Source: Deltaproteobacteria bacterium
GTDB taxonomy: Bacteria; Desulfobacterota; GWC2-55-46; DRQE01
Length of the DNA: 64,000 nt
Direction: 5' to 3'
Assembly: GCA_029858205.1 (NCBI GenBank)
Contig: JAOUFM010000003.1
Coordinates: 210,936 to 274,935 of the forward strand
Shown: positions 471 through 24,161 of the stretch, piece after piece
Numbering within the stretch: the first letter of the stretch is position 1
How the letters are laid out: the number at the start of each line of letters is the position of its first letter
Made by a program: the position numbers and the translations under genes
Notes under the pieces: generated by a model
What the model was told of the DNA's origin: nothing
Seen by the model: the letters and a program-made list of their open reading frames with translations, nothing else
Database searches by the model: none

Positions 471-569
471 GATATCATCCGCTCTCCAGAATCAAGAAAC
501 CCTTTTCGAAAACACCCTGTCACCGCAAACCTGACACAAATCATACGCATCACAAGCCCTTTTACAACC

Positions 570-1847: not shown

Positions 1848-1864
1848 CGTATACTTCGGATCAT

Positions 1865-4460: not shown

Positions 4461-4469
4461 CCGGTGGCG

Positions 4470-6249: not shown

Positions 6250-6264
6250 ACCACCCTTTTGTTT

Positions 6265-7065: not shown

Positions 7066-7080
7066 CTATACAATTCTCCT

Positions 7081-7802: not shown

Positions 7803-7906
7803 TATCTCTCCTCTCTGTCTTCTTTGATATTACACGCTCGCGCAACGGACCACAACAGCGCATTGTCTGCCGCCCTCGCGGTACAAAAACCCTTGCAACA
7901 TGTTTT

Positions 7907-8689
7907 TCACTTAAAGAAATCCGAGCCCAGAATATTATATTTGCCGAGCCTTTCCTCCTGCAATTCAAAGGTTGTAATATCGCCCTTTTTGTCCCAGATA
8001 ATTTCGTACTTTCTGGTAAAATTTCTCTCGAGAAACCGCGCGTTGTTCGTTCTGCCGTCAATTATTATAAAAGTGCCTGGCAGAAAAGTCGGCTCCATCA
8101 ACAGCAAGTCCGCAGACATGACAGTACGCTCATCGCACTGAAAACTCAATCCGTTTACCTGCCCCTGCACGTCCTTGGGCGTCGGTCCGTCTAGATAAAT
8201 AAAATCAGGCACTACATCGGGCAAATTTTTATAATAATGGCAAATTTGCCCGATGTGCGTTCCTATCACAACATCGCTTTGCTGCACATGAACCCTGTCG
8301 CGCAGGTCCTCCGGAATTTTGCCTTTCGTTTGCTCTATCCAATGCATGGACGCGTCGACCGAAAAGATTTTGAACATAAAACGATTTCGTACCTCGGGTT
8401 TGTCCGGCAAGGCATTCCATTCTATTTCGTTCTTCCTTAATGCATCGGCCATAACCATTGTCGAATATCCTATCCCGAACTCCAGCACAGTGAAACACTT
8501 GCGGCTCCTGACAAGTTTATGTAACCGGACCAGGTCCGCAACCTGTAGCGGGAAAGGAAGTATCCTCTTGCCGCTTACGGAATCATAGACATCTCTTTGC
8601 GCGTCGCCGCCCGCCTGGAAATCAATTAATCTATCCAGACCGTTTGCAACGATATATTCATTATCATCCATGTTTTTTCCCAAACTCAT
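7907..8689 (-). CDS. Class I SAM-dependent methyltransferase
   Basis: Motif I 'VLEFGIGYSTMVMA'; 260 aa; good RBS (GAGAGG) before the ATG. Confidence 0.5.
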   Translation of the reverse strand: MSLGKNMDDNEYIVANGLDRLIDFQAGGDAQRDVYDSVSGKRILPFPLQVADLVRLHKLVRSRKCFTVLEFGIGYSTMVMADALRKNEIEWNALPDKPEVRNRFMFKIFSVDASMHWIEQTKGKIPEDLRDRVHVQQSDVVIGTHIGQICHYYKNLPDVVPDFIYLDGPTPKDVQGQVNGLSFQCDERTVMSADLLLMEPTFLPGTFIIIDGRTNNARFLERNFTRKYEIIWDKKGDITTFELQEERLGKYNILGSDFFK

Positions 8690-8744
8690 TATTTGCCTCT
8701 CGATTGCCGTATTTATCTAAGCCAACGGCGCACATCGGCTTGTA

Positions 8745-9893
8745 TCACAAATATGCCAATCTTTTTTGGATATAAAGCACCACCTGTGATAATGCCGCAG
8801 CAATTTTCCCGCTGGCAGTACCGTCACCATACAGACTGCTGGGGGTAAATCCGCCCTTACCAAGCTGCTTTTTCACGGCCTCGAATATCAATGTGCGTTC
8901 AGGAGCAACAGGTAACACATTCTCCGCCACTTCGCGCCCGCCCTGCCTGTCCCCCACCAGCACGACCGGAGTTCCAAGAAAGGACGAATCCCGCACAAAA
9001 CTGCTGCTATTACCGATGGCGCACGAAGCATTTGCAAGCACCTTAAGGTAATTTTCCGGAGTAAAATTTTTTATCAAACGAAGCCACTTTGCCTCGCGTT
9101 GCTCACGAAAAGCGCGAATAACCTTGCTCACATGATCGGAGCCGGCATCAATATTAGGCCACAACCATACCGTCGGCATCTTAATCTCGCCCAATGCCGT
9201 AATAAGTTGCAACGTTTCGTCCTTTTCCATCCCATACTCGGTGGTAACCGGATGGAAAACCACCAGCAGATATTTATCCGTAGCTGCTATTTCCCCGCCA
9301 ACACCGCGCGCAAAGATATCGAACGGCAGCTCTTTATTAAGCTTTAATGCTATATCGCCGCTTGGACATCCGACAAAAAACACGGTTTCTGGCCTTTCAC
9401 CCATACTTTTCAAATGCTCGGCAGCCTTGCGCGTGGACGGGAAATGAAAATGCGCGAGTTTCGTAATGGCATGCCTTGCGCTCTCGTCTATAGATCCGCT
9501 GACCTCTCCCCCCTGTATATGCGCAATGCAAATATTCATATATGACGCGGCCAGAGCGGCGGCTAACGCTTCATACCTGTCGCCGATAATGAGAACAATA
9601 TCCGGACGAAGCCTCTGGAATTCGCTCGCGAATTCTATTACGGCAAAACCGAGCGACTTGGCCATCGTCAACGGCGTAGACCCTTCCAGTTCTATATATA
9701 TTTCACTGCTTACATCAAAACCATCGGTTCTGACAATATTTACGGGAGCTCCAAACCGCTCCAAGACCATCGTTCCGGCACATACAACTTGCAGGGCCAG
9801 ATCATCGTTACGTTTCACGGCCTCCATGACAGGCTTGAGCCTTCCATAATTGGCCCTATCAACCAAGATAACGGCAATTTTACGTTTATTCAT
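8745..9893 (-). CDS. neuC: UDP-N-acetylglucosamine 2-epimerase (hydrolysing), NeuC family
   Basis: 'KIAVILVDRANYGRLKPV...IGDRYEALAAALAASYMNICIAHIQGGEVSGSIDE' is typical of NeuC/SiaA. Confidence 0.8.
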   Translation of the reverse strand: MNKRKIAVILVDRANYGRLKPVMEAVKRNDDLALQVVCAGTMVLERFGAPVNIVRTDGFDVSSEIYIELEGSTPLTMAKSLGFAVIEFASEFQRLRPDIVLIIGDRYEALAAALAASYMNICIAHIQGGEVSGSIDESARHAITKLAHFHFPSTRKAAEHLKSMGERPETVFFVGCPSGDIALKLNKELPFDIFARGVGGEIAATDKYLLVVFHPVTTEYGMEKDETLQLITALGEIKMPTVWLWPNIDAGSDHVSKVIRAFREQREAKWLRLIKNFTPENYLKVLANASCAIGNSSSFVRDSSFLGTPVVLVGDRQGGREVAENVLPVAPERTLIFEAVKKQLGKGGFTPSSLYGDGTASGKIAAALSQVVLYIQKRLAYL

Positions 9894-9920
9894 ATAATAT
9901 CCGGCTCCACCTCGCTACAC

Positions 9921-10970
9921 TCATTTCAAGTCTTTAAGACTTATGAATTCGTCGGCACAAACGCAACGCTTAAGTTTTTTTCCATAAAGCTTTTTCAGCA
10001 TGCTTGCCGGTATGCCTATATTCGGCTTTTTAAGAATAAGATCTCCTTCTTCGAGAATTTTCCCTGCCGGAAGATCTGTTCTCGGCACGACACTTCTGCG
10101 AAATATTTCCCGTATCGTCTCAAGTTCTTTTGCCACAGAGTTTTTTTTAACTGGATTTAGCGCGGCTATTTCCAAAAATCTTACTCCCTTTGCCAATTGC
10201 GCCAACTCTTCCATGGTTACGGACGCTATCACGTCGGGGCCAAACATATGCCGCGACATCGTGACATGCACCTCGACAAACCTGGCGCCAAGCGCACAGG
10301 CGGCAAGCCCTGGGTAAATCGTCCCGGAATGGTCCGACAATCCGACCGGGCAACCAAACTGCCGGCTATACCCGGCAAGAACGTTAAGCCCGATTTTTTC
10401 CGGCGGAGTCGGGTACATCGTCGTCGCCTGGAATAAGGAAAAAACAGTTTTTTCCCTTTTTAAAAACGCGACAACTTTTTTTATTTCCCTGTCGGTGCTC
10501 ATGCCGGTAGAGATCAAAACCGGTTTTCGCGTGGCAACTATCCGTTCCAACATTGCCTCATTACCCAATTCTCCGGACCCTATTTTCCACGCGGCAATAC
10601 CTGCCTTTTGCAACAGATTTACGGCCTCTAACGAAAACGGCGAACTGAGAAAATGCAGTCCCTTGCTGCGCGCATACTTTGCCAAACCGCACCATTGCTC
10701 CGGCGTAAACTCCATCCTCTTCCAATAATCATATCTATTTCTGTCCTGCCTGCTAAACTTAACCCTAAACGGTTCATCCAACGTGCTTTCCGCATCGGCG
10801 ATATGGGTTTGGAACTTAATGGCATCCACGCCGGCCTCTGCCACGACATCTACGAATGCATACGCCTGACCGAGGCTCCCGTCGTGCGTTTGCGCGACCT
10901 CGGCAATCAAAAAACACGCCTTGCAGCCTCTTTCGAAATACTTCCCGATATTTTGCATTTTCCGCACCAC
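9921..10970 (-). CDS. neuB: N-acetylneuraminate (nonulosonic acid) synthase, NeuB family
   Basis: NeuB TIM-barrel motifs ('FLIAEVAQTHDGS', 'AGVDAIKFQTH') plus a C-terminal SAF domain. Confidence 0.85.
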   Translation of the reverse strand: MVRKMQNIGKYFERGCKACFLIAEVAQTHDGSLGQAYAFVDVVAEAGVDAIKFQTHIADAESTLDEPFRVKFSRQDRNRYDYWKRMEFTPEQWCGLAKYARSKGLHFLSSPFSLEAVNLLQKAGIAAWKIGSGELGNEAMLERIVATRKPVLISTGMSTDREIKKVVAFLKREKTVFSLFQATTMYPTPPEKIGLNVLAGYSRQFGCPVGLSDHSGTIYPGLAACALGARFVEVHVTMSRHMFGPDVIASVTMEELAQLAKGVRFLEIAALNPVKKNSVAKELETIREIFRRSVVPRTDLPAGKILEEGDLILKKPNIGIPASMLKKLYGKKLKRCVCADEFISLKDLK

Positions 10971-12257
10971 CTATACCACCTTTTGAGGCTGAGTCCAGAC
11001 ATAGGGCAATTTTACGGCACCAAGGCTATGGTATGACCAATTAACATTGGAATACCCCTTTGACGATGGCTCTATAGCGAAATCTAGCGCCGGCCTTATG
11101 CCGTCCTGCAAAGACGGCGCGTACATACTGAGCCAGGTAAAATATCTGCCGGGGCGCAAATAGTTCGGGGATATATCGAGCCCAAACTTGTACATTCCAG
11201 GCGCCATGACAGCCTCCATCACATCTGACAGAACCGCAAACACCTTTGCGTCCATCGAATCAAGTACCCCGAAATGTATTTCCAAAAGATCCAACTGTTG
11301 CCTCACTTCAACATAGATATCTATATGTATCGATTCTTCCTCTTCATACTGTGACCGCGCTTTGCCAATCTTATCCGAGCAAATGGCTTTTACAAAAACC
11401 GCCTTGGCGGTTTTGGGATTTACTTTATGCAAAGGTCTTTCCAAAAGCCTTAAATCATATACGCCATCCTCCCTCGCAGACAGGCCGCAGCCGGAAGGAT
11501 CTTTAACATAATGTTCTATCACTTCATGCGTTACCCCGGACATAGTCACAACGCCTTTAGTAAGCTCTATGCATCTCGTCGTGAGAGATGCTACCGCGCT
11601 CATGTTATGGCTTACAAAAAGGACGGTCCGCCCCCCCTCTGCCACCTCACCCATCTTACCAAGACATTTCTTCTGAAATCCGGCATCACCGACGGCAAGA
11701 ACTTCATCAACTACCAGTATCTCCGGCTCAAGATGCGCAGCAACTGCAAAGGCCAAACGCACATACATGCCGCTCGAATACCGTTTAACAGGCGTATCGA
11801 GAAACTTCTCTATCTCCGAGAACGCCACTATCTCGTCAAACTTGCTTTTTATCTCAGCCCTCGTCATTCCAAGAAGAGCGCCGTTTAAAAGTATATTTTC
11901 CCTTCCGGTAAGTTCCGGATGAAAACCCGTGCCGACCTCGAGAAGGCTCGCAACGCGCCCCTTCATCGTAATACGGCCGGACGTGGGCTCAGTTATCCTC
12001 GAAAGTATTTTCAAGAGCGTACTTTTACCTGCGCCGTTACGGCCTATAATACCTACAACCTCTCCTTCCTTTACGTTGAAGGAAACGTCCTTCAACGCCC
12101 AAACGATATTATCTTCTTCCTTTTTAGGAGCGCCAAAATTCTTGAACGGCGCAGTCAACGTCTGTACTATTTCATCGCGAAGGCTACCGTAAGCCATCCT
12201 TTCGCCGATCCTGTATTGTTTAGATATATTTCTTACTTCTATTATATTCTTAGACAT
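10971..12257 (-). CDS. wzt: Polysaccharide ABC exporter ATP-binding protein Wzt, with a C-terminal extension
   Basis: Walker A 'GIIGRNGAGKSTLL', ABC signature 'YSSGM', Walker B 'ILVVDE'. An extra C-terminal domain of about 170 aa follows the nucleotide-binding domain. Confidence 0.85.
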   Translation of the reverse strand: MSKNIIEVRNISKQYRIGERMAYGSLRDEIVQTLTAPFKNFGAPKKEEDNIVWALKDVSFNVKEGEVVGIIGRNGAGKSTLLKILSRITEPTSGRITMKGRVASLLEVGTGFHPELTGRENILLNGALLGMTRAEIKSKFDEIVAFSEIEKFLDTPVKRYSSGMYVRLAFAVAAHLEPEILVVDEVLAVGDAGFQKKCLGKMGEVAEGGRTVLFVSHNMSAVASLTTRCIELTKGVVTMSGVTHEVIEHYVKDPSGCGLSAREDGVYDLRLLERPLHKVNPKTAKAVFVKAICSDKIGKARSQYEEEESIHIDIYVEVRQQLDLLEIHFGVLDSMDAKVFAVLSDVMEAVMAPGMYKFGLDISPNYLRPGRYFTWLSMYAPSLQDGIRPALDFAIEPSSKGYSNVNWSYHSLGAVKLPYVWTQPQKVV

Positions 12258-12264
12258 ACTCGTA

Positions 12265-13089
12265 TCAGACCACGTCCGAGAAATAACGCTCTACGCGGCG
12301 GAAATAAAAAACACCGCTTACAAAAACCGCAAAACCGCATACGGCAGACACAGCCAGAGATGCCCAAGGAATATCCACATGACCCAGAACAGCAGCCCGG
12401 ATTGCCTCTATGACACCGGACATCGGGTTTAGCATCAATATCATCTTATACTTTTCCGATAAAAGACCTGCCGGATAAATAACCGGGGTCACGAACATCC
12501 ATATCTGCACGAAAAACGGTATTGCATACTGAATATCCCTGTACCTTACGTTTAGCGCCGAAAACCAAAGCCCGAACCCAACAGCATTCATCATGACGAA
12601 AGACATCAATATCGGCACAAGAAAAATTCCCAAACCAGGCTTTACGCCGTAATAAACCATTATCGCGCCAAACACGAGCGCCGAGATAAAGAAATCCAGA
12701 AACACGGACACGGCGGAACTCGCAGGCATGATGATTCGCGGAAAATATATTTTTGTTATAAGATTTTTTTCAGAAACGACACTGCTGGTAGATTGCGTAA
12801 GCACTGCAGCAAAGTACTGCCACGGTAAAAGACCGGCATACACGAAAACCGGGTACGGTACGCCCTCCGATGGCATCCCCGCGAACCTGCCGAAAATTAC
12901 CGAAAAAACGACCATGGTCAGCACCGGCTGCAGCACGGCCCACACTATGCCGATAACAGCCTGCTTATACTTTACCTTTACATCCCTCCACGCAAGAAAA
13001 TACAAAAGCTCCCTGTACTTCCATATCTCGCGAAGGTCGACCGGTATAAACCCTTTTCTGGGTTCTATGACAGTAACATTATCAGCCAT
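12265..13089 (-). CDS. wzm: ABC-2 type polysaccharide exporter permease Wzm
   Basis: About six predicted transmembrane helices, 274 aa; adjacent to and translationally coupled with wzt. Confidence 0.8.
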   Translation of the reverse strand: MADNVTVIEPRKGFIPVDLREIWKYRELLYFLAWRDVKVKYKQAVIGIVWAVLQPVLTMVVFSVIFGRFAGMPSEGVPYPVFVYAGLLPWQYFAAVLTQSTSSVVSEKNLITKIYFPRIIMPASSAVSVFLDFFISALVFGAIMVYYGVKPGLGIFLVPILMSFVMMNAVGFGLWFSALNVRYRDIQYAIPFFVQIWMFVTPVIYPAGLLSEKYKMILMLNPMSGVIEAIRAAVLGHVDIPWASLAVSAVCGFAVFVSGVFYFRRVERYFSDVV

Positions 13090-13092
13090 AAA

Positions 13093-14034
<942 letters not shown>

Positions 14035-15171
14035 TTAACCTACCGTCAATTTACTATCTGTCCAGGCTATGCCTTTTTTGGCGAGTATCTTTCTGCCTTC
14101 ACCCTTTGAATCGACACCTGCGGCCTCAAGGTCATAATCCACCATTATCTTGACCAGATCCTTGAATGTTATCTCAGGGGTCCACCCGAGTTCCTTTTTG
14201 GCCTTTCTTATGTCAGCCTTAAGCACATCGACCTCTGTAGGCCTTAAATAACGGGGATCGAGCTCTATGATTGCGTATCCCGGCTTTAGACCGTCGGCAA
14301 TGCCTTTTTTAAGAGACTTTATTACTCCCTTTTCCTTAATGCCCTTGCCCTTCCATTCGATCTCTATTCCCGCATATTCGAATGCATGGTTCAAAAAGTC
14401 CCTTACCGACCTTGTATCGCCCGTGCCTATTACAAAATCCCCGGGCTTATCGTGCTGAAGGATGCGCCACTGGCATTCGACGTATTCGGGCGCAAACCCC
14501 CAGTCCCTTTTTGCGTCGAGGTTGCCAAGGTAAAGCTTTTTTTGCTTACCCGCGACTATCGCGGCAAGGGCGCGCGTGATTTTGCGCGTAACAAAAGTCT
14601 CGCCCCTTCTTGGAGATTCGTGGTTAAAAAGTATCCCGTTCGAGGCGAACATGCGGTAGCCTTCGCGGTAGTTTACGGTCATCCAGTACGAGTACACCTT
14701 TGCCGCGGCGTAAGGGCTCTGCGGCCGAAATACCGTTTTCTCGCTTTGCGGAGGAAGCGCGCTCCCAAACATTTCACTCGAAGACGCCTGATAAAAACGC
14801 GCAGGCACTCCGCTTCTCCTGACTGCCTCGAGAAGGCGTGTTGTGCCAAGTCCGGTGATGTCGCCTGTGTATTCGGGTATATCGAAACTCACGCGAACGT
14901 GGCTCTGGGCGCCGAGATGATAAATCTCGTTTGGCGCAATATTGTAAACCAGATTAACGAGCTGTCCCGAGTCCGAAAGGTCTCCGTAGTGAAGTAAAAG
15001 TTTTGTCCCCGGCAGGTGACGGTCCTTATATATATGATCTATCCTGTGGGTATTGAAGGTACTGGCGCGCCGTATTATGCCGTGCACCTCGTAGCCCTTG
15101 CTTAAGAGAAGTTCGGCAAGGTAGCTTCCGTCCTGCCCTGTTATTCCCGTTATAAGCGCGCGCTTTCCCAT
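14035..15171 (-). CDS. gmd: GDP-mannose 4,6-dehydratase
   Basis: '[33 protein letters not shown]' is the canonical Gmd N-terminus. Confidence 0.9.
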
Positions 15172-15172
15172 T

Positions 15173-15874
15173 CTATTCTCCCGGATTGTTTTTTATTATA
15201 GTAGGCCTCTCGGCCCAGCGTTTCTTATCGACAAAAACGGTGTTAACGAACGTATCGCCGCAGACGATATATCCATTACGCTCCATCACCTTGAATATTT
15301 CATCGTTCTTCCTGTTCTCGTTATAATAAACGGTCTCTATGCAAAACACCTCGGGTCTGTACTTCTTGAAATCGAAACTCTCGAGTATCTCGACCTCGAG
15401 GCCTTCGACGTCAATGGTTACAAGGTTCGGGCATTTATCGAAATATTTTTCGATTATCCCGTTTATGGGCACGACATTTATCTTCAACACCTTCGGCTCG
15501 CCGCTGCCAATACTCTTGTAACGCTCCATGGTTTCCCTGCTGCAGGTGCTAAGTGTTGTGCCGCCCGGTATAACGTAAAAATCAATGACCCCTGCCTTTG
15601 CCGCAACGCCGACATTAAGATTAACGTCCCTTCTTCTCTTAAAACCGAACTTGGCGAAAAGCTCCGGGTCTGGCTCCACGTTCACGCCCTTGCATCCGTT
15701 CTTGTAAAAATAGTACGTGTTACTGAACTTAACGGGGTCGTGCGCGCCGACATCAAGATAAGTGGGTTTACGTATCTTTAACGCCCTCAAGATGAAATCC
15801 GCAAGCACGTCCTCGCCTGCCTGGGCGTAAGATCTCTTATAATCTCTTTTGAATATATTCCTTATGAATTTCAT
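15173..15874 (-). CDS. FkbM-family methyltransferase
   Basis: '[16 protein letters not shown]' motif. Confidence 0.7.
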
Positions 15875-15891
15875 CTCATTGAACTCCGGCC

Positions 15892-17217
15892 CTACGCCGG
15901 CACCACCTTTTTGCTTTTAAATTTCCTTGCCGCGCCTCTTGCATCCACCACTATCTTGCTGTTAACAGCTATCATCTTATAGTCGTAACACGTATGGTCC
16001 GTGGATATGACGACGCAATCGTATTTCTTTAACGCCGCGGGGGTAAGTTTCACGGACTTAAGTTCGATTGCATGGTGCCGCATCCTCGGCATCTTCGGCA
16101 CATAGGGGTCGTTATAATCCACCTTTGCGCCAAGCCCCTTTAGCATTTCTATGATATGCACGGAAGGAGACTCCCTCATGTCATCCACATCTTTTTTATA
16201 CGCCGCTCCGAGCACAAGGATACGCGAGCCTTTGACGGACTTGCCTTCCTTGTTTAGCGCTGTACCGACCTTCCCAATGACATAAGAAGGCATGGAGGTG
16301 TTTATCTCCCCGGCAAGCTCTATAAAGCGCGTTGCGAACTCGTACTCCTTCGCCTTCCACGTAAGGTAAAACGGGTCTATGGGAATGCAATGCCCGCCAA
16401 GGCCCGGGCCCGGATAAAAGGCCTGGAACCCGAAGGGCTTGGTCTTCGAGGCATCGATGACCTCCCATATGTCAATGCCCATCTTATCGGTAAGCATCTT
16501 AAGCTCGTTTACAAGCGCTATATTGACGCAGCGATATATATTCTCGAGAAGCTTTGTCATCTCTGCCGCGCGCGTGGTAGAGACCTCTACCACCTTATCT
16601 ATAATCTGCGAGTACAACAGACTGCCCGCTGCCAGACAATCCTTTGTAACACCGCCAACCACCTTGGGAATCGTCTTTGTCGAAAAATCCTTTCTCCCCG
16701 GATCTTCCCTTTCGGGCGAGAATACAAGGAAGTAATCTTTGCCGACACGAAGCCCTGTTTTTTCGAATTCCGTAAGAAGTATTTCGTCGGTTGTTCCGGG
16801 ATAAGTAGTGGACTCAAGAGAAACAAGCTGGCCTATTCTAAGGCGCTCCACTATCTCCTTTGTCGTACCGACAACATAGCTCATATCCGGCTCGCGCATC
16901 TTACCCAGCGGCGTAGGCACGCATATGATGACCGCATCCGGCTCCTTAAGCCTGTTCATGTCAGCGGTCGCGGCAAACTTCTTTCCCTTGACATGTTTTG
17001 CGATATCCCCTGCGGCTATGTGCTTTATGTAAGACCTTCCGGCATTGAGCGCCTTTACTTTGGACGAGTCAACATCGAACCCGAGCACCCTGAAGCCTTC
17101 GTCGCAGAACCTGAGTACCAGCGGCAACCCGACATAACCAAGCCCGATAACGCCTATGAGCGCGCTTCGTTTTTCTATTTTTTCAAGCAGTTTTTCTTTT
17201 ACGATATTTTTCGCCAT
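15892..17217 (-). CDS. Nucleotide-sugar dehydrogenase (UDP-GlcNAc/ManNAc 6-dehydrogenase family, WbpA/TviB-like)
   Basis: '[13 protein letters not shown]' Rossmann motif, catalytic 'GGHCIPID', 441 aa. Confidence 0.75.
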
Positions 17218-17253
17218 AGCACCTCATTTAAAGCCGTTTCTCAGGATTTTTTC

Positions 17254-17919
17254 TCAAACCTGTCCTTTTTTGCTGATGTCTATGATCCGTGCCTGAACAA
17301 CCCCTGCCTCTATCAATGCCTTCGAAAGTTCCGCGCTTCTATAAAACGAAGTTATTACTATGGCCTCGGCTGCGCCGTCCCTGAGCTTTTCAATACCGAC
17401 AACCGGCATATCGAAAAACTTTTCGGTTCTTTCGATATCCGAAATGCAGACAAGCTCCAACCCGGCCTCCTTTAAAGACAGATACGCTATCTCGGCAACC
17501 TCATCTACGCCGCAGAAAGCGACTCTGCTTATGCCAAGCTCCTTCAACCTTGCAAACAGTTCAGCGAAATCCGTCCTCGCAACCCTGTAGAGGTTGGTAA
17601 AATTCCTCAGATGTTCGTAGGTGAGACGGGTCTTTTCAAGAAAACCATTTGGCGTAAGATAATATTTGTAGCGCTTTGCGGGAATACCGGAGACTGTTAT
17701 GTAACCTTTTGAAATGAGATTCTTTATGTAGGAATTTATGAGTCCCAGCGCAATACCGAGGTTTTTGCTTATTTCACGCTGGGTTAGGTCGCCGTTTCGC
17801 GATATCTCGTCAAGCACGAGAAGCGAACGGTACCCATCCATATGGCCGTTTTTATCCTCGCTGTTCATACTATGAACATACCATTTAATCAGGCATTTTG
17901 TCAAGTAAAACGCGTTCAT
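17254..17919 (-). CDS. Winged-helix transcriptional regulator with a C-terminal Rossmann-like domain. It is the last gene before the glycan cluster and divergent from the novel cassette.
   Basis: 'LDEISRNGDLTQREISKNLGIALGLINSYIKNLISKGYITV' wHTH. The real start is possibly the internal Met at 17868. Confidence 0.45.
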   Translation of the reverse strand: MNAFYLTKCLIKWYVHSMNSEDKNGHMDGYRSLLVLDEISRNGDLTQREISKNLGIALGLINSYIKNLISKGYITVSGIPAKRYKYYLTPNGFLEKTRLTYEHLRNFTNLYRVARTDFAELFARLKELGISRVAFCGVDEVAEIAYLSLKEAGLELVCISDIERTEKFFDMPVVGIEKLRDGAAEAIVITSFYRSAELSKALIEAGVVQARIIDISKKGQV

Positions 17920-18050
17920 GCAATGAACTGGCCGCGCGCAAAAAATTAGTAATTTACATTTGCCGGGGTTTTATTGTATGGTATATTACTTAAAATTCCC
18001 CGTGCTGTTTTATTAAAAAATATTCCAACTTCGCTATCTGAAAAGTAAAT

Positions 18051-18080
18051 TTGGCCATGCCAGTCTTTTTATGCTACAAT
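18051..18080 (+). promoter_or_regulatory. Candidate sigma-70 promoter for the 5-gene cassette: -35 TTGGCC (18051-56), 18-nt spacer, extended -10 TGcTACAAT (18072-80).
   Basis: Read directly from the sequence, about 22 nt upstream of the ATG at 18103; the leader is short with a weak SD. Confidence 0.3.
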
Positions 18081-18102: not shown

Positions 18103-20238
18103 ATGAATGCCAGAGATTTTGAAAAAGAGATAAAAATCCACATCGAAGCGCGCTACCCCATTTTGTGGCTCGTATCGTTCGAAGAGCGCCGGGTCGAGCG
18201 CATCGTCGAAAACCTCTGCAATACCAACGGGTTCAAGTTCTGGACATGGTCCGTGTCAAAAGGGCTCTACGGTAGCGACAAAAAAAAGAAAGAGCCCGTT
18301 GGCAGGGAAAAAATCCTTACCTCCATTGAGGAAAAGATAGTAAAGAACGAGGAAATCAATAACTTCTTCCTTTTAAAGGACATTGCCGGGTATTTCCAAT
18401 CCCACGAGTTCCTAAGAAAGTTTCGCGACATCCCGGGCACCATCGAGGACTATCGCTCGCTTAACACCGTCTGCATCCTCTCGCCAACACTTAGCGAGAT
18501 TCCGCCGGAGCTCGAAGAAGACATCGTGGTAATCGAGCTTAGCCTGCCCGAGTACGACGAAATCGAGGAGATGGTAAACACGAACTTTTCCAAATACATC
18601 CCCGCGTCGTGGCATTCGTCTACGAGGTCGGTTCTCTACAAATCGCTACAGGGCCTTTCTCTAGATAACATCAAAAGGGTCGTAAGAAAGGCAATCAGCC
18701 TGAATAGAGGCGTGCTGAACGAAGAATGCATCAAGTACATACAGGACGAGAAGCAGCAAATCATAAAAAAGCAGCAGATACTCGATTACTACCCCTACAG
18801 GGAAACTATCGACCACATCGGCGGCCTCGATGAAATAAAAAAATGGTTCGTCGAGAGAGAGCATGTCTTCCGTTTAAGCAAGGGCAAAATCGAAACTCTC
18901 GGCCTTGACGTTCCAAAAGGCCTCATGCTAATTGGCGTTCCGGGCTCCGGGAAAAGCCTCTGCTGCAAGGCCCTTGCCGGCATCTGGAACCTTCCGCTTC
19001 TAAGAATGGACGTAGGCCGTCTCTTTGGCTCGACAGTCGGAGAGTCCGAGAAAAATATTCGTAAGGCCATACAGCTTGCAGAGGCGGTAAGCCCCTGCAT
19101 AATGTGGATCGACGAGATAGACAAGGCATTCGGCGGAATATCCGGTTTCCAGGGGGATTCGGGCACGCAGCTAAGGGTGTTTGGCACCTTCATCACATGG
19201 CTGCAGGAAAAGGACAAACCCGTCTTTGTCATAGCAACTGCCAACGACCCGAAAAACCTTCCTCCCGAGCTATGGAGAAAAGGCCGCTACGACGAAGTGT
19301 TCTTCGTCGATCTTCCAAGCGCCGAGGAAAGAGACGAAATATTCAAGATACACCTCGAAAGAAGAGGACAAAAACCGTCGAACTTCCGCTTAAAGGAACT
19401 CTCGCAGAACTCGCAGGGCTACACGGGCGCCGAGATAGAGCAGGCCATAAAGGACGCGGTCGTTGCCACATTCAACACTCTGCACGAGGGAAAAGAAGCA
19501 AAAGAGGCCGACGCAATAATAGACGGCACCTTAACCCTCTCACTCGACACGGCAACGCTTCTCGAAGCGATACGGCACATAACGCCGCTCTCGGTTCTGA
19601 AAAAAGAGGAGATCGAGGCGCTTCGCGAATGGAGCCAGCAAAGGGCGCGGCCCGCATCGAAGTCTCTCTTCATGCAGCGCGCAGAGATGCTCTCTGACGC
19701 GGAAAAGCGCACTATCGCCATACACGAGGCCGGACATATAATAATGATGTGGCATCACTTCAATGGCACGCCGGTCTTCGTGAGCATAGATAACTACAAG
19801 GACACCTCTGCATTCACCGGCAAGAGCGAAAGCCTCGTAAACACACTTACCAAGCGCGACCTGGAAAAGGAAATCGGCGTGATGCTTGGCGGCATGGTGG
19901 CCGAAGACGAGGTCGGCGGAGCGGACTCGAAAACTGTTGGCGCCTCGCACGACCTTAGCGACGCAACGGCCAAGGCAAGAAGAATGGTCGTGGAATACGG
20001 CTTTGGCGACATAATGAAGAACACGAGCCTTGTAGAGCTCCAGGAATACGCCATGATGTCCGGGAAAGACATTCTCGAGGACATACAGAAGATAATCCAC
20101 GGCGCAAAGGAAGAGACCGAGTCCGTCATTTCGAAGAACAAAGCGCTTCTCGAAAAGCTCGCGGACAAGCTCGTGGCGGAGATACTCGTAAACGGCGAGG
20201 GATTAAGGAATTTCCTTACGCAGCACAATCTGGAATAA
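18103..20238 (+). CDS. Soluble FtsH-like AAA+ ATPase-zinc metalloprotease (Ycf46-like N-domain + AAA + peptidase M41), no transmembrane anchor
   Basis: Walker A 'GVPGSGKS', Walker B 'IMWIDEID', sensor-1 'ATANDP', Arg-finger region 'RKGRYDEV', 'HEAGH' zinc motif and downstream 'GASHDLSDATAKARRMVVEYGFG' (FtsH 'GASNDIERATEIARKMV'). The N-terminal ~240 aa ('ARYPILWLVSFEERRVERIV') are non-membrane. Confidence 0.8.
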   Translation: MNARDFEKEIKIHIEARYPILWLVSFEERRVERIVENLCNTNGFKFWTWSVSKGLYGSDKKKKEPVGREKILTSIEEKIVKNEEINNFFLLKDIAGYFQSHEFLRKFRDIPGTIEDYRSLNTVCILSPTLSEIPPELEEDIVVIELSLPEYDEIEEMVNTNFSKYIPASWHSSTRSVLYKSLQGLSLDNIKRVVRKAISLNRGVLNEECIKYIQDEKQQIIKKQQILDYYPYRETIDHIGGLDEIKKWFVEREHVFRLSKGKIETLGLDVPKGLMLIGVPGSGKSLCCKALAGIWNLPLLRMDVGRLFGSTVGESEKNIRKAIQLAEAVSPCIMWIDEIDKAFGGISGFQGDSGTQLRVFGTFITWLQEKDKPVFVIATANDPKNLPPELWRKGRYDEVFFVDLPSAEERDEIFKIHLERRGQKPSNFRLKELSQNSQGYTGAEIEQAIKDAVVATFNTLHEGKEAKEADAIIDGTLTLSLDTATLLEAIRHITPLSVLKKEEIEALREWSQQRARPASKSLFMQRAEMLSDAEKRTIAIHEAGHIIMMWHHFNGTPVFVSIDNYKDTSAFTGKSESLVNTLTKRDLEKEIGVMLGGMVAEDEVGGADSKTVGASHDLSDATAKARRMVVEYGFGDIMKNTSLVELQEYAMMSGKDILEDIQKIIHGAKEETESVISKNKALLEKLADKLVAEILVNGEGLRNFLTQHNLE

Positions 20239-20248
20239 GGGCCCCGCT

Positions 20249-20587
20249 ATGTCGTTTTTCACAAAGCTCAACACCGAACTCAAAAACAAACAGTACGTGC
20301 TCGCTGCCATAGCCGCCCTTAAGCAGACAGGCGAGATAAAGAACTACGCCATAAACGAAAAGAAGGAAAGCGTCGAAATAAACCGCGCCGGCGACATTAT
20401 ACAGGTAGTAAAAACAAAGACCGGCGAGTACGAACTGCAGGGAGACGCAAGAGTGGTAAGCGCCTTCTCGAGCAGGCTAAAGCAGCTCTACGCGTACGAG
20501 GCAATCAAAGACAACATGCCGCTGGACTTCGAGATAGCCGAAGAGATAGAAACCGCCGGAGAGATCCGCATCGTGCTTAAAGGCTAA
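20249..20587 (+). CDS. Small conserved hypothetical protein (112 aa), possibly DUF1257/Ycf35-like
   Basis: Sits 10 nt after the protease gene. It is charged, Lys/Glu-rich and cysteine-free. The family assignment is from memory only. Confidence 0.4.
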   Translation: MSFFTKLNTELKNKQYVLAAIAALKQTGEIKNYAINEKKESVEINRAGDIIQVVKTKTGEYELQGDARVVSAFSSRLKQLYAYEAIKDNMPLDFEIAEEIETAGEIRIVLKG

Positions 20588-20589
20588 AT

Positions 20590-20775
20590 ATGGGTAAAGA
20601 GATAAAAATAAAGATAACACCCGACGGCAAGGTCGAGATAGATTCGACCGTGTTCAAGGACTGTAAAGAGGTGGCCGAACACCTATCGAAGGTCATAGGA
20701 AAGGTCGAGGTCTTCACCATAAAAGAAGAACACGAGCGCGAAGAAAAACTTCGCATAAAAAAAGGCGACAAATAA
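20590..20775 (+). CDS. Small hypothetical protein (61 aa), possibly DUF2997-like
   Basis: Begins 2 nt after the previous stop (translational coupling). 'KIKITPDGKVEIDSTVFKDCKEVAEHL...' with a Lys/Glu-rich tail. Confidence 0.35.
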   Translation: MGKEIKIKITPDGKVEIDSTVFKDCKEVAEHLSKVIGKVEVFTIKEEHEREEKLRIKKGDK

Positions 20776-20779
20776 GCAC

Positions 20780-21364
20780 ATGGCATCGTCGATATTCATA
20801 GACACGCACGCGATAATCGAGAGGTCGCGTGTAAACGGCCCAGGACAGAGGCTGGTGGTCTTTTTCCAGGGCTGTCACAGGAACTGTCCTGGCTGCTTCA
20901 ATCCGGCAACGCACTCAATCGGCACTGGCGTCAAATACGGCATACGGGAGATATTCGCGCGTTTCCTCTCTAAAAACGTAAGCGGCTTAACTGTTAGCGG
21001 AGGTGAGCCGTTTCTGCAAAGCGCGGCGCTCTGTGAACTGCTTAAAACCGCAAAACGCGAACACGGCCTTACGACCGCCGTGTACACGGGATTCACGATA
21101 GAGGAAATACGTTCATCAACGGAGCTTAGCCCTGCGCTCGAGCACATAGACGTGCTCATAGACGGGGCGTTCGACGAAAACAACACAGAAAGGACAACTC
21201 TTGCAAGAGGTTCCACAAACCAGCGCCTTCACTTTCTCTCCGGCGTTTATTCGATAGATGATTTTATTTTGCCAGGCAAAGCGGAGATAATAATCAACAA
21301 GGACGGTTCGGTGGTAGAGACCGGATTTTCGAAGCCGGCGGGAATAAACTCCATCCTCTTGTAA
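20780..21364 (+). CDS. NrdG-family radical-SAM activase (glycyl-radical-enzyme activating protein-like, single 4Fe-4S cluster)
   Basis: 'VNGPGQRLVVFFQGCHRNCPGCFNPATH' (CX3CX2C), 'GLTVSGGEPF', 'AVYTGFTIEEI', 'VLIDGAFDEN...RGSTNQRLHFL' are colinear with E. coli NrdG. Confidence 0.75.
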   Translation: MASSIFIDTHAIIERSRVNGPGQRLVVFFQGCHRNCPGCFNPATHSIGTGVKYGIREIFARFLSKNVSGLTVSGGEPFLQSAALCELLKTAKREHGLTTAVYTGFTIEEIRSSTELSPALEHIDVLIDGAFDENNTERTTLARGSTNQRLHFLSGVYSIDDFILPGKAEIIINKDGSVVETGFSKPAGINSILL

Positions 21365-21377
21365 AACGACCCACACC

Positions 21378-24161
21378 ATGACGATAGAGAACTTCTTCAG
21401 GGACAATTCCGGCATAGCGCGCACAAGCGCAGTTGAGCAGCGCGACGCGGCGCTAAAATACCTGCGCTCGCTGCCAGAGTCTAGCGACAGGGCCGAGGAC
21501 TTCAAATCGGCGTACGCGTACATACGAAACATCAGCGACGCCGAAGAAATGCGAAACGCACTCATCGAGCTTGCCATCACGATGCCAAAGCACGGCCCGT
21601 GCATGGACCTGTTTAAAGAAGTGTTCCCCGGCGCCATCAACTCCACAGACGCCATACCCGAGCCCATACACCGCAAATCAACGCTTACGCGCCTTGTAGA
21701 CTGCGTGCCCGACAAACCGGAGTACGCCGAGGCATACGCGCGCGTCGTGGAAAAATACATCGAGGCCGCAGACAAGATAGACGACCGCTTTGCGCGGCGC
21801 TACGCGCTTGCGGAAATTGCATCGAGACTCAAACACAGGGACGAATACGAAGCCCTCATGCTCCATGCCATGAAGGTGAGCCTCGGGTTTGCCGGCCTTC
21901 CGGGCTTTAGGCAATACTCGCTTCCCGAGATAGCAAGGGAACTTCCGAAAAGCTGCGACGTGGAGGTCTACAGAAACCACACATTCCTCGGGCTTGCGTT
22001 CTCGCTGCCGCACAGGGGCGAGTTCCTCGAACTCTTCAAAAAGGCCCTGACCACGGCCATCGAGTCAACGGAGCACATCGTTGAGCCGTATTACAAGAAA
22101 TACGCCCTTCTCTTCATGGCCAACAGGCTGCCCGAGACAGCAGAGTTTTTACCGCTAAGAAAGAGCGCTTTCAGGGCCGCCCTTGCCTCGGTCGACACGC
22201 TCGCCGACAGCTTCGCCAGGCAGTACGGATATAACGAATTCCTAAAGGACGTGCCAAAGACGCGCGAATTCTCCGACATACTGCTCGATACGGTCGAGAA
22301 GAGCCTTCCGTTCTTTTCTCTAAGAAGCCAGATGTCGGACTACGAGCCCATAGAGATACTCGACCGGATACTGATCGTCGCGGACAAAAAAATATCGGAT
22401 TCGAAGAAAAAACATTACACCCGCTTCCATTACGCCGATTTTTTCCTGAAACAGCTGAACCTGATAGCCGATAACTTAAACGATGTGCGCCTTCTGGAAA
22501 TTCTAAGGCCCTACACGCACGTATGGGTAAGGCCAAAAACTTTCAGGGACTCGATACGCAAGGTGTTCGACAAGGTCTCGTCCTTAAAAGGCAGATACCA
22601 CGGCGCCGAAGTAGAGCGTCCACTTTATGTCAGCGAGGCATGCCTCGGCATAGACAAACGAAGCCGCACGGCATCCGTTATGGCGGATACGCGCGAAGGC
22701 TACGCGCTCTCGATAGACCTTGGCGCCACCAATACCGTTGTAATGCTTAAAAAACCCGGGGCATTCCCGGAATTCGTCAACATAGAAGGATTATCCGAAA
22801 CCATCGGAAGCGTTGCCTTCATAAGCACGGCAGTAGACAAGAACAACGACTTGATAGGCGCTGCGGCGCCGGCCCAGTCGCGCTCGAACAACATAAAAAA
22901 ACTGTTCATGGAAGGCGACGAAGAGGGGCGCGAGCTCATCGAGAAGTTTTTCCGCATCCTGTACTCCAGAATAAAGGAATCTGTCGAGGTGCCCGGGTTT
23001 TTCAAGAAACTTTCCGGCAGGATTTTCGATACCGTTTCCGTGACAGTGCCGGTCGGGTATACGGATTACAGCGGCGAACTTACCAGAATCATCGAAAAAT
23101 ACGCGGGCAGCGCGCGCATAAAGCTCGTGGAAGAGCCGCTTGCTGCGGCGATAGGCTATAACGTGGCGGAGAAAAAGGAAAAATTCGTCCTTGTTCTCGA
23201 CTTTGGCGGCTGCACGCTCGACCCGATGCTTTTAAGGCTCTCTACCGACATGACACACGTCATAGCAAAGCCCGACAGATCCAAGATGCTTGGCGGGCGC
23301 GACATAGACCGCTGGGTGGCCGAGTACGTGAACGAAAAGCATAACCTTAGGACCAACCCTTCGGGGCACGAGGCCCTGACTGCGGCAGAGGCGCTGAAAA
23401 TAGAACTTAGCGCCAAAAACTCGGCGAAGTTCGTGTTTGGCGGCCGCGATATCGCGGAACTTACGCGCATAGAGTTCGAGGAGCTTCTCTCGCGCAGAGG
23501 GTTCTACAGCGACATAGACAGGGAACTTTCGAACGTGCTAAAAAAGGCTTCGAAGCTCGGCGTTTATAAATCCATGATAGAGGCCGTCATCATAACCGGG
23601 GGCTCTTCGCAGATACCGTCGTTCAAGGAAAAGATATCTCACTACTTCCACAACCTGGCCGTGCAAAACGCGATATACGACCACAGCCCGCTGTCGTCGG
23701 TCGCAAGGGGCGCGGCCCTCTACGGCACGGCCTCGGTGCTGGACCGCCACCTGGCCATGGCGTACGCAATAAAGCACATTGCAAGGGAAGAGGAAAAACA
23801 GTTTGCCTACGAAATCGTACTCGAAAAGGGCGAATCGCTTCCGTTCAAAAAGACCTTGCGCTTTACTCCTGCCATGACGCTCGGTGGACAGAAGGAAATA
23901 TTTCTCGAACTCTTCGAGGTGCCCGATTCCCTTATCGTACGGCGCTGGATATCCGAGGGCGGCATGGAGTTCATAAAGCAAATACTTAAGCACACGCCCG
24001 ACGAACTCGATCTGAGGGCTTTCAAGACCGTCACGCTTTCATTCGACGCTCCTATAGAAGGAAGCACAGACATCACATTTATAGTGGAAGAGAACGGACG
24101 ATTGAAGGTGCGCTACGAAAAAGACGGCCGCGAACTTGCAACCGACATACACCTTCAGTAA
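21378..24161 (+). CDS. Large Hsp70/actin-fold ATPase with a ~430-aa N-terminal alpha-helical repeat domain
   Basis: Hsp70 phosphate-1 'IDLGATNTVV', phosphate-2 'VLDFGGCTLDPML', adenosine motif 'VIITGGSSQIPSF', 'LVEEPLAAAIGY'; 927 aa. Confidence 0.75.
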   Translation: MTIENFFRDNSGIARTSAVEQRDAALKYLRSLPESSDRAEDFKSAYAYIRNISDAEEMRNALIELAITMPKHGPCMDLFKEVFPGAINSTDAIPEPIHRKSTLTRLVDCVPDKPEYAEAYARVVEKYIEAADKIDDRFARRYALAEIASRLKHRDEYEALMLHAMKVSLGFAGLPGFRQYSLPEIARELPKSCDVEVYRNHTFLGLAFSLPHRGEFLELFKKALTTAIESTEHIVEPYYKKYALLFMANRLPETAEFLPLRKSAFRAALASVDTLADSFARQYGYNEFLKDVPKTREFSDILLDTVEKSLPFFSLRSQMSDYEPIEILDRILIVADKKISDSKKKHYTRFHYADFFLKQLNLIADNLNDVRLLEILRPYTHVWVRPKTFRDSIRKVFDKVSSLKGRYHGAEVERPLYVSEACLGIDKRSRTASVMADTREGYALSIDLGATNTVVMLKKPGAFPEFVNIEGLSETIGSVAFISTAVDKNNDLIGAAAPAQSRSNNIKKLFMEGDEEGRELIEKFFRILYSRIKESVEVPGFFKKLSGRIFDTVSVTVPVGYTDYSGELTRIIEKYAGSARIKLVEEPLAAAIGYNVAEKKEKFVLVLDFGGCTLDPMLLRLSTDMTHVIAKPDRSKMLGGRDIDRWVAEYVNEKHNLRTNPSGHEALTAAEALKIELSAKNSAKFVFGGRDIAELTRIEFEELLSRRGFYSDIDRELSNVLKKASKLGVYKSMIEAVIITGGSSQIPSFKEKISHYFHNLAVQNAIYDHSPLSSVARGAALYGTASVLDRHLAMAYAIKHIAREEEKQFAYEIVLEKGESLPFKKTLRFTPAMTLGGQKEIFLELFEVPDSLIVRRWISEGGMEFIKQILKHTPDELDLRAFKTVTLSFDAPIEGSTDITFIVEENGRLKVRYEKDGRELATDIHLQ

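Follow-up and report, generated by a model that had tools for sequence, protein, structure and literature searches.

An NrdG-like radical-SAM protein with a C-terminal extension, encoded in a conserved operon with an AAA+/M41 protease, DUF1257- and DUF2997-like proteins and an Hsp70-like ATPase

What does an activase of the NrdG type do in an operon that holds no ribonucleotide reductase (RNR) for it to activate? The question is raised by one gene of a 64,000-nucleotide stretch of contig JAOUFM010000003.1 from a Deltaproteobacteria bacterium (assembly GCA_029858205.1; the whole stretch is called the window here), which encodes a 194-aa NrdG-like radical S-adenosylmethionine (SAM) protein, abbreviated rSAM below. 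To our knowledge, the characterised activases of the NrdG/PflA type all serve glycyl-radical metabolic enzymes. A first-pass annotation of the window, made from the letters alone, described this one as an orphan with neither NrdD nor a pyruvate formate-lyase (PFL) in reach, and proposed that a neighbour is a non-canonical radical acceptor or that the enzyme performs another radical reaction on a protein partner. The evidence assembled here suggests that rSAM would be a dedicated, evolutionarily optional and NrdD-independent subunit of a Ycf46-type protein-remodelling module.

The family to which the protein belongs can be read from several profiles. Pfam recognises a Fer4_12 domain (E=6.6e-34, 117.6 bits against a cut-off of 22) and a Radical_SAM domain (E=3.6e-7, 30.9 bits where the cut-off is 29.5), NrdG scores best among the NCBIfam models (TIGR02491, 5.5e-34), and the closest solved structure is PflA (3c8f/3cb8, E=1e-8). 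By BLASTP the protein is 28% identical to E. coli K-12 NrdG over all 154 aa of the latter (E=5e-23), which bears out the colinearity noticed at first inspection, and the NrdGs of T4-like phages reach ~37% identity. The reading frame is real, since it has more than 700 homologues, the closest of them ~50-65% identical at the protein level. A profile search of 1.84 billion representatives returned 691 cluster representatives of the subfamily at E<=1e-30, nearly all of them stand-alone and ~180-260 aa long; no fusion to a partner domain, of the Rosetta-stone kind, was present among the longer of them.

Equally informative are the motifs. The CX3CX2C, GGEP and RGSTNQ motifs that the first reading had named were verified in place by script, and the protein thereby carries both marks of the radical-SAM superfamily, the cluster motif and a GGE-type SAM motif. 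In an alignment of 27 family members NGPGxR, CX3CX2C, GGEP and RGSxNQ are all invariant or nearly so; within GGEP, G74, G75 and P77 do not vary, and conservation of E76 reaches at least 90%. The NGPGQR loop, immediately before the cluster motif, is an instance of the [DN]GxGxR signature common to NrdG and PflA, and pairs in alignments with VNGPGTR of E. coli NrdG and VDGPGIR of PflA. In the structure of the PFL-activating enzyme, PflA, this loop touches the glycyl loop. Judged by its sequence, the window protein is a genuine NrdG-type radical-SAM protein.

It is evidently not an ordinary NrdG. The score against TIGR02491 misses the equivalog cut-off (117.3 against 126.1 bits), the E. coli-type NrdG model NF008335 gives 71.6 against a cut-off of 199, and the PflA and glycyl-radical enzyme (GRE) activase models (TIGR02493/TIGR02494) score far under their cut-offs. 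A canonical NrdG has ~150-170 aa and ends soon past the RGSxNQ box, an architecture that the window protein lacks, and on three of the four features by which NrdG membership was judged it falls outside the family. Beyond the box lies a family-specific extension of ~40 aa, predicted to form a conserved beta-hairpin that would be the mark of the subfamily. Its consensus is RY..D....aE..I..DG.v..[TS]G[FVI], with Y157, E169, G176 and T181-G182-F183 invariant in the close family, and it has no Pfam match. It was found in all 28 aligned relatives sampled across classes, and nearly all of the best 150 profile matches, which are stand-alone proteins, reach profile position ~183-188, that is, through the extension; the NrdGs of E. 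coli, phage RB43 and a phage contig (L089) end right after RGSxNQ and lack it. Because of the sub-threshold score, the extension and the lack of any NrdD in the window and in 87 related loci (see below), the protein is not simply NrdG, and on this evidence we place it in a distinct NrdG-like subfamily. Existing labels diverge: several annotation sources call relatives 'anaerobic ribonucleoside-triphosphate reductase activating protein', and the name that the NCBI pipeline PGAP gives to copies on plasmids is not NrdG, being '4Fe-4S single cluster domain-containing protein'. The sole element common to all genomic contexts described below is rSAM itself with its extension.

The extension may complete a minimal barrel structurally, act as a hairpin for docking or serve as a substrate built into the enzyme. 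Its sequence (LPGKAEIIINKDGSVV) is similar to the hairpin at the N-terminus of the DUF2997-like protein encoded just upstream (window 20590-20640, MGKEIKIKITPDGKVE), and the docking idea derives from this weak resemblance (hhalign E=0.0028, probability just 11%), which may reflect hairpin mimicry or pairing, or else chance.

The expected partner was sought in the 64-kb window of the 277-kb contig and in ~20 kb per related locus. No NrdD- or PFL-like protein occurs among the large open reading frames (ORFs) of the window, and phmmer with E. coli NrdD, run on the window in six-frame translation, found nothing there, nor within ~10 kb of the gene in the 87 loci. The same query finds NrdD (7.9e-60) directly upstream of the canonical NrdG on phage contig L089, a positive control; for the window, the orphan status first proposed is confirmed. 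A phage origin of rSAM was considered and dropped, as IMG/VR yielded no relative.

What the gene has instead is an operon. ORFs and Pfam bear out the neighbours first seen around it, namely a protease, a pair of mini-proteins and an Hsp70-like ATPase, and the five genes form one operon (Table 1): intergenic gaps are 10, 2, 4 and 13 nt, the + strand carries no terminator-like site from 18103 to 24161, and a convergent gene begins past 24161. The candidate promoter region sits in a 183-bp gap between a divergent MarR-like gene and gene 1. No riboswitch or other RNA was found upstream of the operon, the window's only Rfam match being a tRNA.

The linkage is conserved. Related loci were gathered by look-ups of four homologues and from one genome per GTDB species (80 loci), and compared by phmmer against our own ORF calls. 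In the 63 close loci (L001-L063), from Thermodesulfobacteriota/'Deltaproteobacteria' and Nitrospirota metagenome-assembled genomes (MAGs) whose rSAM is 47-65% identical, the gene order AAA-M41, 112-aa protein, 61-aa protein, rSAM, Hsp70-like protein is retained. All five genes were detected in 53; nine of the remaining ten are cut by contig ends, which leaves L021, without an Hsp70-like gene downstream, as the only uncut exception. The association first noted in one genome is therefore conserved and not accidental. No further gene belongs to the conserved set, as flanking families are common to at most 20 of 60 loci and flanking genes are conserved only among close relatives.

Table 1. Positions of the operon, of motifs within rSAM and of neighbouring genes in the window
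Feature	Coordinates	Strand	Remarks
Epimerase	13093-14031	-	
GDP-mannose dehydratase-like gene	14035-15171	-	
UDP-glucose/GDP-mannose dehydrogenase	15892-17217	-	
MarR_EPS-type regulator	17254-17919	-	divergent from operon
Candidate promoter region	17953..18080	+	four sigma-70-like matches, consensus only
Gene 1, soluble AAA+/M41 metalloprotease, 711 aa	18103..20238	+	Pfam AAA 6.3e-30, Peptidase_M41 1.8e-19
Gene 2, probable divergent DUF1257 (Ycf35-like), 112 aa	20249..20587	+	profile comparison
Gene 3, DUF2997-like, 61 aa	20590..20775	+	Pfam DUF2997 E=5.7e-4, 20.1 bits against cut-off 24.1
Gene 4, NrdG-like radical-SAM protein (rSAM), 194 aa	20780..21364	+	ATG start
NGPGQR loop, aa 19-24	20834..20851	+	invariant in 27/27 aligned family members; script-verified position
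CX3CX2C, [4Fe-4S] cluster site, C32/C36/C39	20873..20896	+	invariant in family; script-verified
GGEP, aa 74-77, SAM-binding 'GGE' motif	20999..21010	+	script-verified position
RGSTNQ box, aa 143-148	21206..21223	+	counterpart RGSSNQ in E. coli NrdG; script-verified
C-terminal extension, aa ~155-194 (~40 aa)	21242..21361	+	family-specific; alignment of relatives
Gene 5, Hsp70-like ATPase, 927 aa	21378..24161	+	Pfam HSP70 4.7e-27

The first of the conserved partners is the product of gene 1, in which a Ycf46-type N-domain (aa 1-230, no Pfam match) precedes an AAA domain with Walker A motif GVPGSGKS (aa 278) and a protease domain with intact HEAGH (aa 541). No transmembrane-like segment was found (the maximum 19-residue Kyte-Doolittle mean is 1.17), and the NCBIfam FtsH model TIGR01241 gives 173 bits against a cut-off of 600. 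The protein is far better conserved than its operon partners, 316 of its 711 positions being at least 97% conserved in 43 orthologues, among them the invariant C209, C287, C288 and C332.

The two small proteins are probably divergent members of known families. Gene 2 encodes an alpha+beta protein with a TBP-like/KA1-like fold and no direct Pfam match; phmmer links it (9e-5) to a Longilinea protein that is itself DUF1257 (PF06868) at 1e-25, and its family profile aligns with that protein over the full length (hhalign probability 93%, E=2.9e-7). All 53 homologues have 111-123 aa. The N-terminal MSF is invariant and echoes the 'MSH' motif that is reported as invariant for Ycf35 (PMC13060386) and was present in all DUF1257 copies collected, so that MS[HF] is common to both. 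Gene 3 scores below the Pfam cut-off for DUF2997, and several homologues at 60-70% identity have a precomputed PF11211 match; it can also be aligned with established DUF2997 proteins from Paenibacillus, Anaerolineae and cyanobacteria, with which it has in common a hairpin, an invariant Cys and an LG motif. In its AlphaFold2 model (pLDDT 60), aa 5-19 form a beta-hairpin and aa 25-36 a helix, the tail being of low confidence, and C25, G37 and K45 are invariant among homologues.

Gene 5 joins a ~440-aa N-terminal helical-repeat region to an Hsp70/actin-fold nucleotide-binding domain (NBD) and a ~140-aa C-terminal domain. The NBD carries verified phosphate-1 (IDLGATNT, aa 446), phosphate-2 (DFGGCTLD, aa 608) and adenosine (ITGGSSQ, aa 739) motifs and is 60% conserved, against 19-27% for the N-terminal region; neither the N-terminal nor the C-terminal region has a Pfam match. 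Among NCBIfam models only residues ~550-785 match, best to HscA (1e-28, 100 against 620 bits) and then to DnaK (83 against 648 bits). The protein has no conserved Cys, for which reason a role as an 'archerase'-type Fe-S ATPase that reduces rSAM was rejected.

More distant relatives of rSAM (L064-L087, 38-48% identity) show how far the association extends. About half of them keep DUF1257 and DUF2997 beside rSAM, the linkage to a core of AAA, DUF1257 and DUF2997 spans at least five phyla, and the small upstream DUF2997-type gene often overlaps the rSAM gene. Paenibacillus chromosomes carry AAA(540 aa)-DUF1257-DUF2997-rSAM with neither an M41 domain nor Hsp70, and in Anaerolineae the order is AAA, HEAT/WD40, Hsp70, DUF1257, DUF2997, rSAM, WD40. 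Plasmid records, annotated independently by PGAP, agree: the P. polymyxa plasmid pPPM1a carries AAA/DUF1257/DUF2997/rSAM, and a B. cereus plasmid has rSAM ... AAA-DUF2997. Residues 6-519 of the window AAA protein are 36-39% identical over the full length to the AAA proteins of these systems, and the M41 domain is therefore an addition. Identity is 38% to the AAA proteins of Pseudanabaena, Geminocystis, Longilinea and Paenibacillus that flank annotated DUF1257/DUF2997 genes, those on cyanobacterial plasmids being 508-aa AAA ATPases; for the Hsp70-like protein, comparison with the 529-aa Hsp70 proteins from Longilinea and Pseudanabaena gives 28-29%. An AAA+ protein with the family N-domain is thus encoded beside the DUF1257- and DUF2997-like genes, the arrangement of a Ycf46-type module; it is by their architecture, and by what the literature says of the operon, that the AAA proteins are assigned to Ycf46.

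Versions without rSAM also exist. Pseudanabaena galeata plasmid pPg_01 (L091 2864-10378) encodes GrpE-Hsp70-DUF1257-...-DUF2997-AAA-HEAT/WD40 and no rSAM, a Geminocystis plasmid (L093 5001-8360) has another rSAM-less version, and the cyanobacterial plasmid copies lie among RelE/ParE, PIN, zeta-toxin and RloB-type genes. Compared with the rSAM-containing Longilinea system, the Pseudanabaena proteins are 75% (AAA), 60% (Hsp70), 55% (DUF1257) and 57% (DUF2997) identical; the AAA figure, between a cyanobacterium and Chloroflexi, suggests horizontal transfer or extreme constraint. Because rSAM-less versions exist, AAA, DUF1257 and DUF2997, with or without Hsp70, GrpE and HEAT/WD40, form the core, and rSAM is accessory, by this comparison not the system's centre but an addition that it can do without.

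Several further settings were recorded among the distant relatives. On Treponema succinifaciens plasmid pTRESU01, rSAM and an adjoining Ycf46-like AAA gene (L095 6920-9075) lie inside a contractile-injection-system cluster with VgrG/Pvc8 and baseplate V genes, and a DUF1257 gene (L092 6001-6408) lies in a second phage-tail-like cluster 54 kb away. Genes on the flanks of the Paenibacillus vandeheii module (L066 4956-16070) encode a primase-type CHC2 zinc finger, SSB, DUF6744 and LysM proteins, together with a DUF6094/N6 DNA methyltransferase and a 1131-aa helicase; this region looks like an integrated mobile element. In seven myxobacterial MAGs (L067, L068, L069, L072, L073, L076, L079), rSAM with its extension is the last gene of another conserved four-gene set (recorded at ~4 kb upstream of the rSAM match), which consists of a ~411-aa protein without a Pfam match, two TldD/PmbA-like peptidases (~610 and ~660 aa) and rSAM; DUF1257 and DUF2997 are absent from these seven loci. 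Proteins with an FGE-sulfatase (formylglycine-generating-enzyme-like) domain are encoded directly upstream of rSAM in L084 (8994-9875) and L085 (67-855), the former locus also containing three paralogous Ycf46-like AAA genes. In L081 the rSAM gene is followed by one for a 1571-aa bacterial alpha-2-macroglobulin; DUF1257 and DUF2997 are missing from the FGE-sulfatase and alpha-2-macroglobulin settings too, and a cyanobacterial Kovacikia megaplasmid carries a subfamily member with none of the partners.

For the function of rSAM we infer a chemistry, a polypeptide substrate and a regulatory logic as follows. A catalytically competent enzyme of the NrdG/PflA type, acting as a dedicated subunit of the module, would take a C-alpha hydrogen from a partner polypeptide and supply an anoxia- and reducing-power-dependent input to an unfoldase/protease; we give this reading about an even chance. 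In the window the module would comprise an AAA+ unfoldase that has an M41 protease fused to it, an adaptor-like protein of the DUF1257 type, a DUF2997 protein and an Hsp70-like ATPase. By analogy with NrdG and PflA, SAM would be reduced at the [4Fe-4S] cluster, and the resulting 5'-deoxyadenosyl radical would abstract the C-alpha hydrogen from an exposed loop of the partner, either a component of the module or one of its clients. Candidate acceptors are DUF2997, with its low-confidence tail in the AlphaFold2 model, and the invariant C-terminal [TS]-G-[FVI] of rSAM itself. The radical, or the Fe-S state, would then inform the chaperone/protease machine of anoxia and reducing power, an input paralleled by Fed7, which occupies the corresponding place in the DUF2997-DUF1257-fed7 operon of cyanobacteria and has a DnaJ-like co-chaperone as binding partner. 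The radical chemistry would most likely be directed at a module protein rather than at a ribonucleotide reductase, because rSAM is a fixed member of a conserved operon. A more specific version, in which a GRE-type activase with no metabolic enzyme as its substrate places an oxygen-labile glycyl-type backbone radical on a component of the AAA+/Hsp70 machine or on its own [TS]-G-[FVI] tail, as a 'fuse' by which unfolding and proteolysis would be tied to anoxia and redox state, is speculative and in our judgement unlikely. The purpose of the module may be stress proteostasis, or a conflict or mobile-element function.

A number of observations weigh against a radical placed on a module protein. 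The first-pass proposal of a radical acceptor among the neighbours is supported as far as the conserved linkage is concerned and finds no support for the acceptor itself: neither the strict fingerprint PS00850 (RVxG[FYW]) nor the relaxed form R[IVT]xG[YFW] occurs in any of the five operon proteins, and in the six-frame translation of the window the relaxed form matches only in frames that do not code or in an epimerase of no relevance here. The Gly at the C-terminus of the 112-aa protein was discarded as a ubiquitin-like or radical site, its position varying between G, D and S, and so was an 'ISGF' in the pore-loop-2 region of the AAA domain, which belongs to a lineage-specific insertion. Cys25 and Gly37 of DUF2997 are likewise out as rSAM-specific acceptors: both are kept in rSAM-less cyanobacterial copies, so the Cys and the LG(G) motif are not adaptations to rSAM. 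The partner may not be a module protein at all, because subfamily members occur without DUF1257 and DUF2997, and the extension could merely add strands to a minimal NrdG barrel.

Other explanations account for parts of the same evidence. Under one of them, nrdD lies elsewhere in the genome and rSAM is its only activase, a housekeeping NrdG relocated by chance into an unrelated operon; the best curated family is indeed NrdG, at 117.3 bits just 9 bits under the cut-off, the protein is colinear with E. coli NrdG, and several sources give relatives the reductase-activating label. This account has to contend with the five-gene arrangement in 53 of 63 loci from two phyla, with the AAA/DUF1257/DUF2997 linkage in at least five phyla and on plasmids, with the absence of NrdD within ~10 kb in all 87 relatives where a canonical phage NrdG has one, and with the family-specific extension and the score below the equivalog cut-off, and we consider its chance very slight. 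The (near-)invariance of GGEP, NGPGxR and RGSxNQ, and not just of the cluster cysteines, would be unexpected in a pure Fe-S redox or oxygen sensor without productive radical chemistry, an equivalent of Fed7 that reports to the AAA+/Hsp70 machine; the existence of the core system without any rSAM and the lack of an acceptor motif in the five operon proteins speak for such a sensor, which nevertheless appears improbable. Maturation of a peptide in the manner of ribosomally synthesised and post-translationally modified peptides (RiPPs) would have rSAM modify the 61-aa protein, for example by epimerisation or cross-linking, and the AAA-M41 protein or TldD/PmbA process the product. A small protein with a low-confidence tail is encoded immediately upstream, often in a gene that overlaps that of rSAM, relatives are linked to TldD/PmbA-type peptidases, and there is weak similarity in the PDB to the peptide epimerase YydG (E=0.007). 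But DUF2997 is conserved also where rSAM is absent and is 57% identical between Chloroflexi and cyanobacteria, unlike a precursor; no transporter, immunity gene or leader/core organisation is present, and the TldD/PmbA-linked loci lack DUF2997, all of which makes this account highly doubtful.

The likeliest rival is a mobile conflict system, for defence or counter-defence, in which repeat sensors (HEAT/WD40, and the variable repeats at the N-terminus of the Hsp70-like protein) act with AAA+/Hsp70 chaperones to control an effector; rSAM would then make a toxic or signalling small molecule, as viperin does, or inactivate a target protein, with no stable radical on a module subunit. Distant versions on plasmids among toxin-antitoxin and RloB-type genes, the Paenibacillus element with its primase-like Zn-ribbon, SSB, DNA methyltransferase and helicase genes, the Treponema copy in its contractile-injection-system cluster, the association with WD40/HEAT, FGE-sulfatase-domain and alpha-2-macroglobulin proteins, the cross-phylum AAA identity of 75% with the horizontal transfer it suggests, and the poor conservation of the Hsp70-like N-terminal repeats are all in keeping with it. 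So are weak matches in PADLOC, of IetA to the AAA domain, of pVip (1.3e-7) to the rSAM core and of PDC-M61B (5.5e-5) to the Hsp70 NBD; these matches, however, represent generic AAA/rSAM similarity and no known system. Equally, no relative was found in IMG/VR, the operon is surrounded in the window by genes for exopolysaccharides and housekeeping functions, Ycf46 and Ycf35 are genes induced by stress and conserved widely in cyanobacteria and plastids, and both the [DN]GxGxR loop and the likeness to NrdG/PflA suggest that the substrate is a polypeptide rather than a nucleotide. We hold a conflict function to be unlikely, and prefer the reading in which rSAM acts on a partner polypeptide of a protein-remodelling module.

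The significance of that reading extends beyond one genome. Several hundred clusters (691 representatives) are tied to unfolding and proteolytic machinery, which would imply an uncharacterised protein-directed radical reaction. Ycf46, Ycf35 and DUF2997 are conserved 'hypothetical chloroplast frames' that have stress phenotypes and no mechanism, and an anaerobic version with a presumed catalytic Fe-S partner, found in Paenibacillus and Bacillus hosts that can be cultured, brings the question within reach of experiment. If the radical-fuse version were true, it would provide the first biochemical handle on the Ycf46, Ycf35 and DUF2997 proteins of cyanobacteria and plastids. On the practical side, metabolic reconstructions of MAGs that follow the pipeline label 'anaerobic ribonucleoside-triphosphate reductase activating protein' would be misled into including a class III RNR.

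The surroundings of the operon add a few observations of their own. Positions 1-17919 of the window (- strand) hold a long run of sugar-nucleotide/exopolysaccharide-type genes that ends in the MarR_EPS-type regulator, and the pair formed by this regulator and the dehydrogenase also stands ahead of the cassette in L001-L003. Three tandem paralogues of ~560-590 aa (36453-38174, 38218-39909 and 40277-42043, - strand) are 46-48% identical and have 8-10 predicted membrane segments; the middle one (38218-39909) alone has a Pfam match, a C-terminal TPR, and the outer two have none at E<=1e-5. In two Nitrospirota loci a second radical-SAM gene, combining Zn_ribbon_HMPTM and Radical_SAM domains in 524-561 aa, lies immediately upstream of the five-gene set (L005 1581-3266, L007 3488-5062), and downstream of the set hemerythrin, NosD-like, DUF2299, DUF2769 and MFS genes recur.

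Comparison with known systems begins with the enzymes that rSAM most resembles. Like NrdG (TIGR02491), it is a colinear member of the minimal Fer4_12 radical-SAM family with NGPGxR, CX3CX2C-x-N, GG[ED]P and RGSxNQ; unlike NrdG, it has the ~40-aa extension and an AAA+/DUF1257/DUF2997/Hsp70 operon in place of NrdD. With PflA and other GRE activases it has in common the N-terminal layout of [DN]GxGxR and CX3CX2C and, by analogy, the presumed abstraction of a C-alpha hydrogen from a polypeptide, although PflA has 245 aa against 194. The small autonomous glycyl-radical protein GrcA/YfiD shows that a stand-alone protein of ~100-130 aa can be the substrate of a GRE activase, whereas the 112-aa protein has a TBP-like/KA1-like fold instead of a GRE C-terminal domain and lacks RVSGY. 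The AAA domain and the Peptidase_M41 domain with HEXXH recall FtsH, from which gene 1 differs by the missing transmembrane anchor, the Ycf46-type N-domain and a score below the FtsH cut-off; gene 5 departs from DnaK and HscA in having no full-length equivalog score and 440 additional N-terminal aa.

Among multi-gene systems, no described defence system in PADLOC-DB v2 matches the gene set, only generic domain-level matches being returned and none for the two small proteins. In the FtsH ternary systems of Kaur et al. (2020, PMC7159879), an FtsH-type AAA+ protein is accompanied by a radical-SAM protein predicted to modify a small co-encoded peptide; as presented in the passages of that paper at hand, which make no mention of DUF1257 or DUF2997, these systems are defined by MoxR and vWA components, both absent from the window operon, and identity with them was rejected on that ground. 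Literature searches on DUF1257/DUF2997, Ycf46/Ycf35, NrdG-like proteins and Hsp70 with radical SAM found no description of an rSAM-DUF1257-DUF2997 association. The nearest relatives are the cyanobacterial and plastid sets of Ycf46, Ycf35 and DUF2997, with or without Fed7, which have the same three core families and an AAA protein 38% identical over its full length. Ycf46 and Ycf35 are described as widely conserved, stress-induced cyanobacterial and plastid genes, and cyanobacterial ycf46 lies in a stress-induced three-gene operon (bioRxiv 10.1101/2025.07.21.665879). DUF2997, DUF1257 and fed7 form a tricistronic operon in cyanobacteria, where Fed7, a [4Fe-4S] ferredoxin, binds a DnaJ-like protein to which it is fused as DnaJ-Fed7 in photosynthetic eukaryotes (PMC4284462). 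The window system differs from these operons in its fused M41 domain, in having rSAM in place of the ferredoxin, in the 440-aa repeat domain of its Hsp70-like protein and in its anaerobic or groundwater hosts. The likeness lies in a [4Fe-4S] protein tied to two small proteins and linked, there through a DnaJ-like partner, to the Hsp70 system, and this recurring combination of a small-protein pair, a [4Fe-4S] protein and an Hsp70-system component would, by analogy, be the closest functional parallel found.

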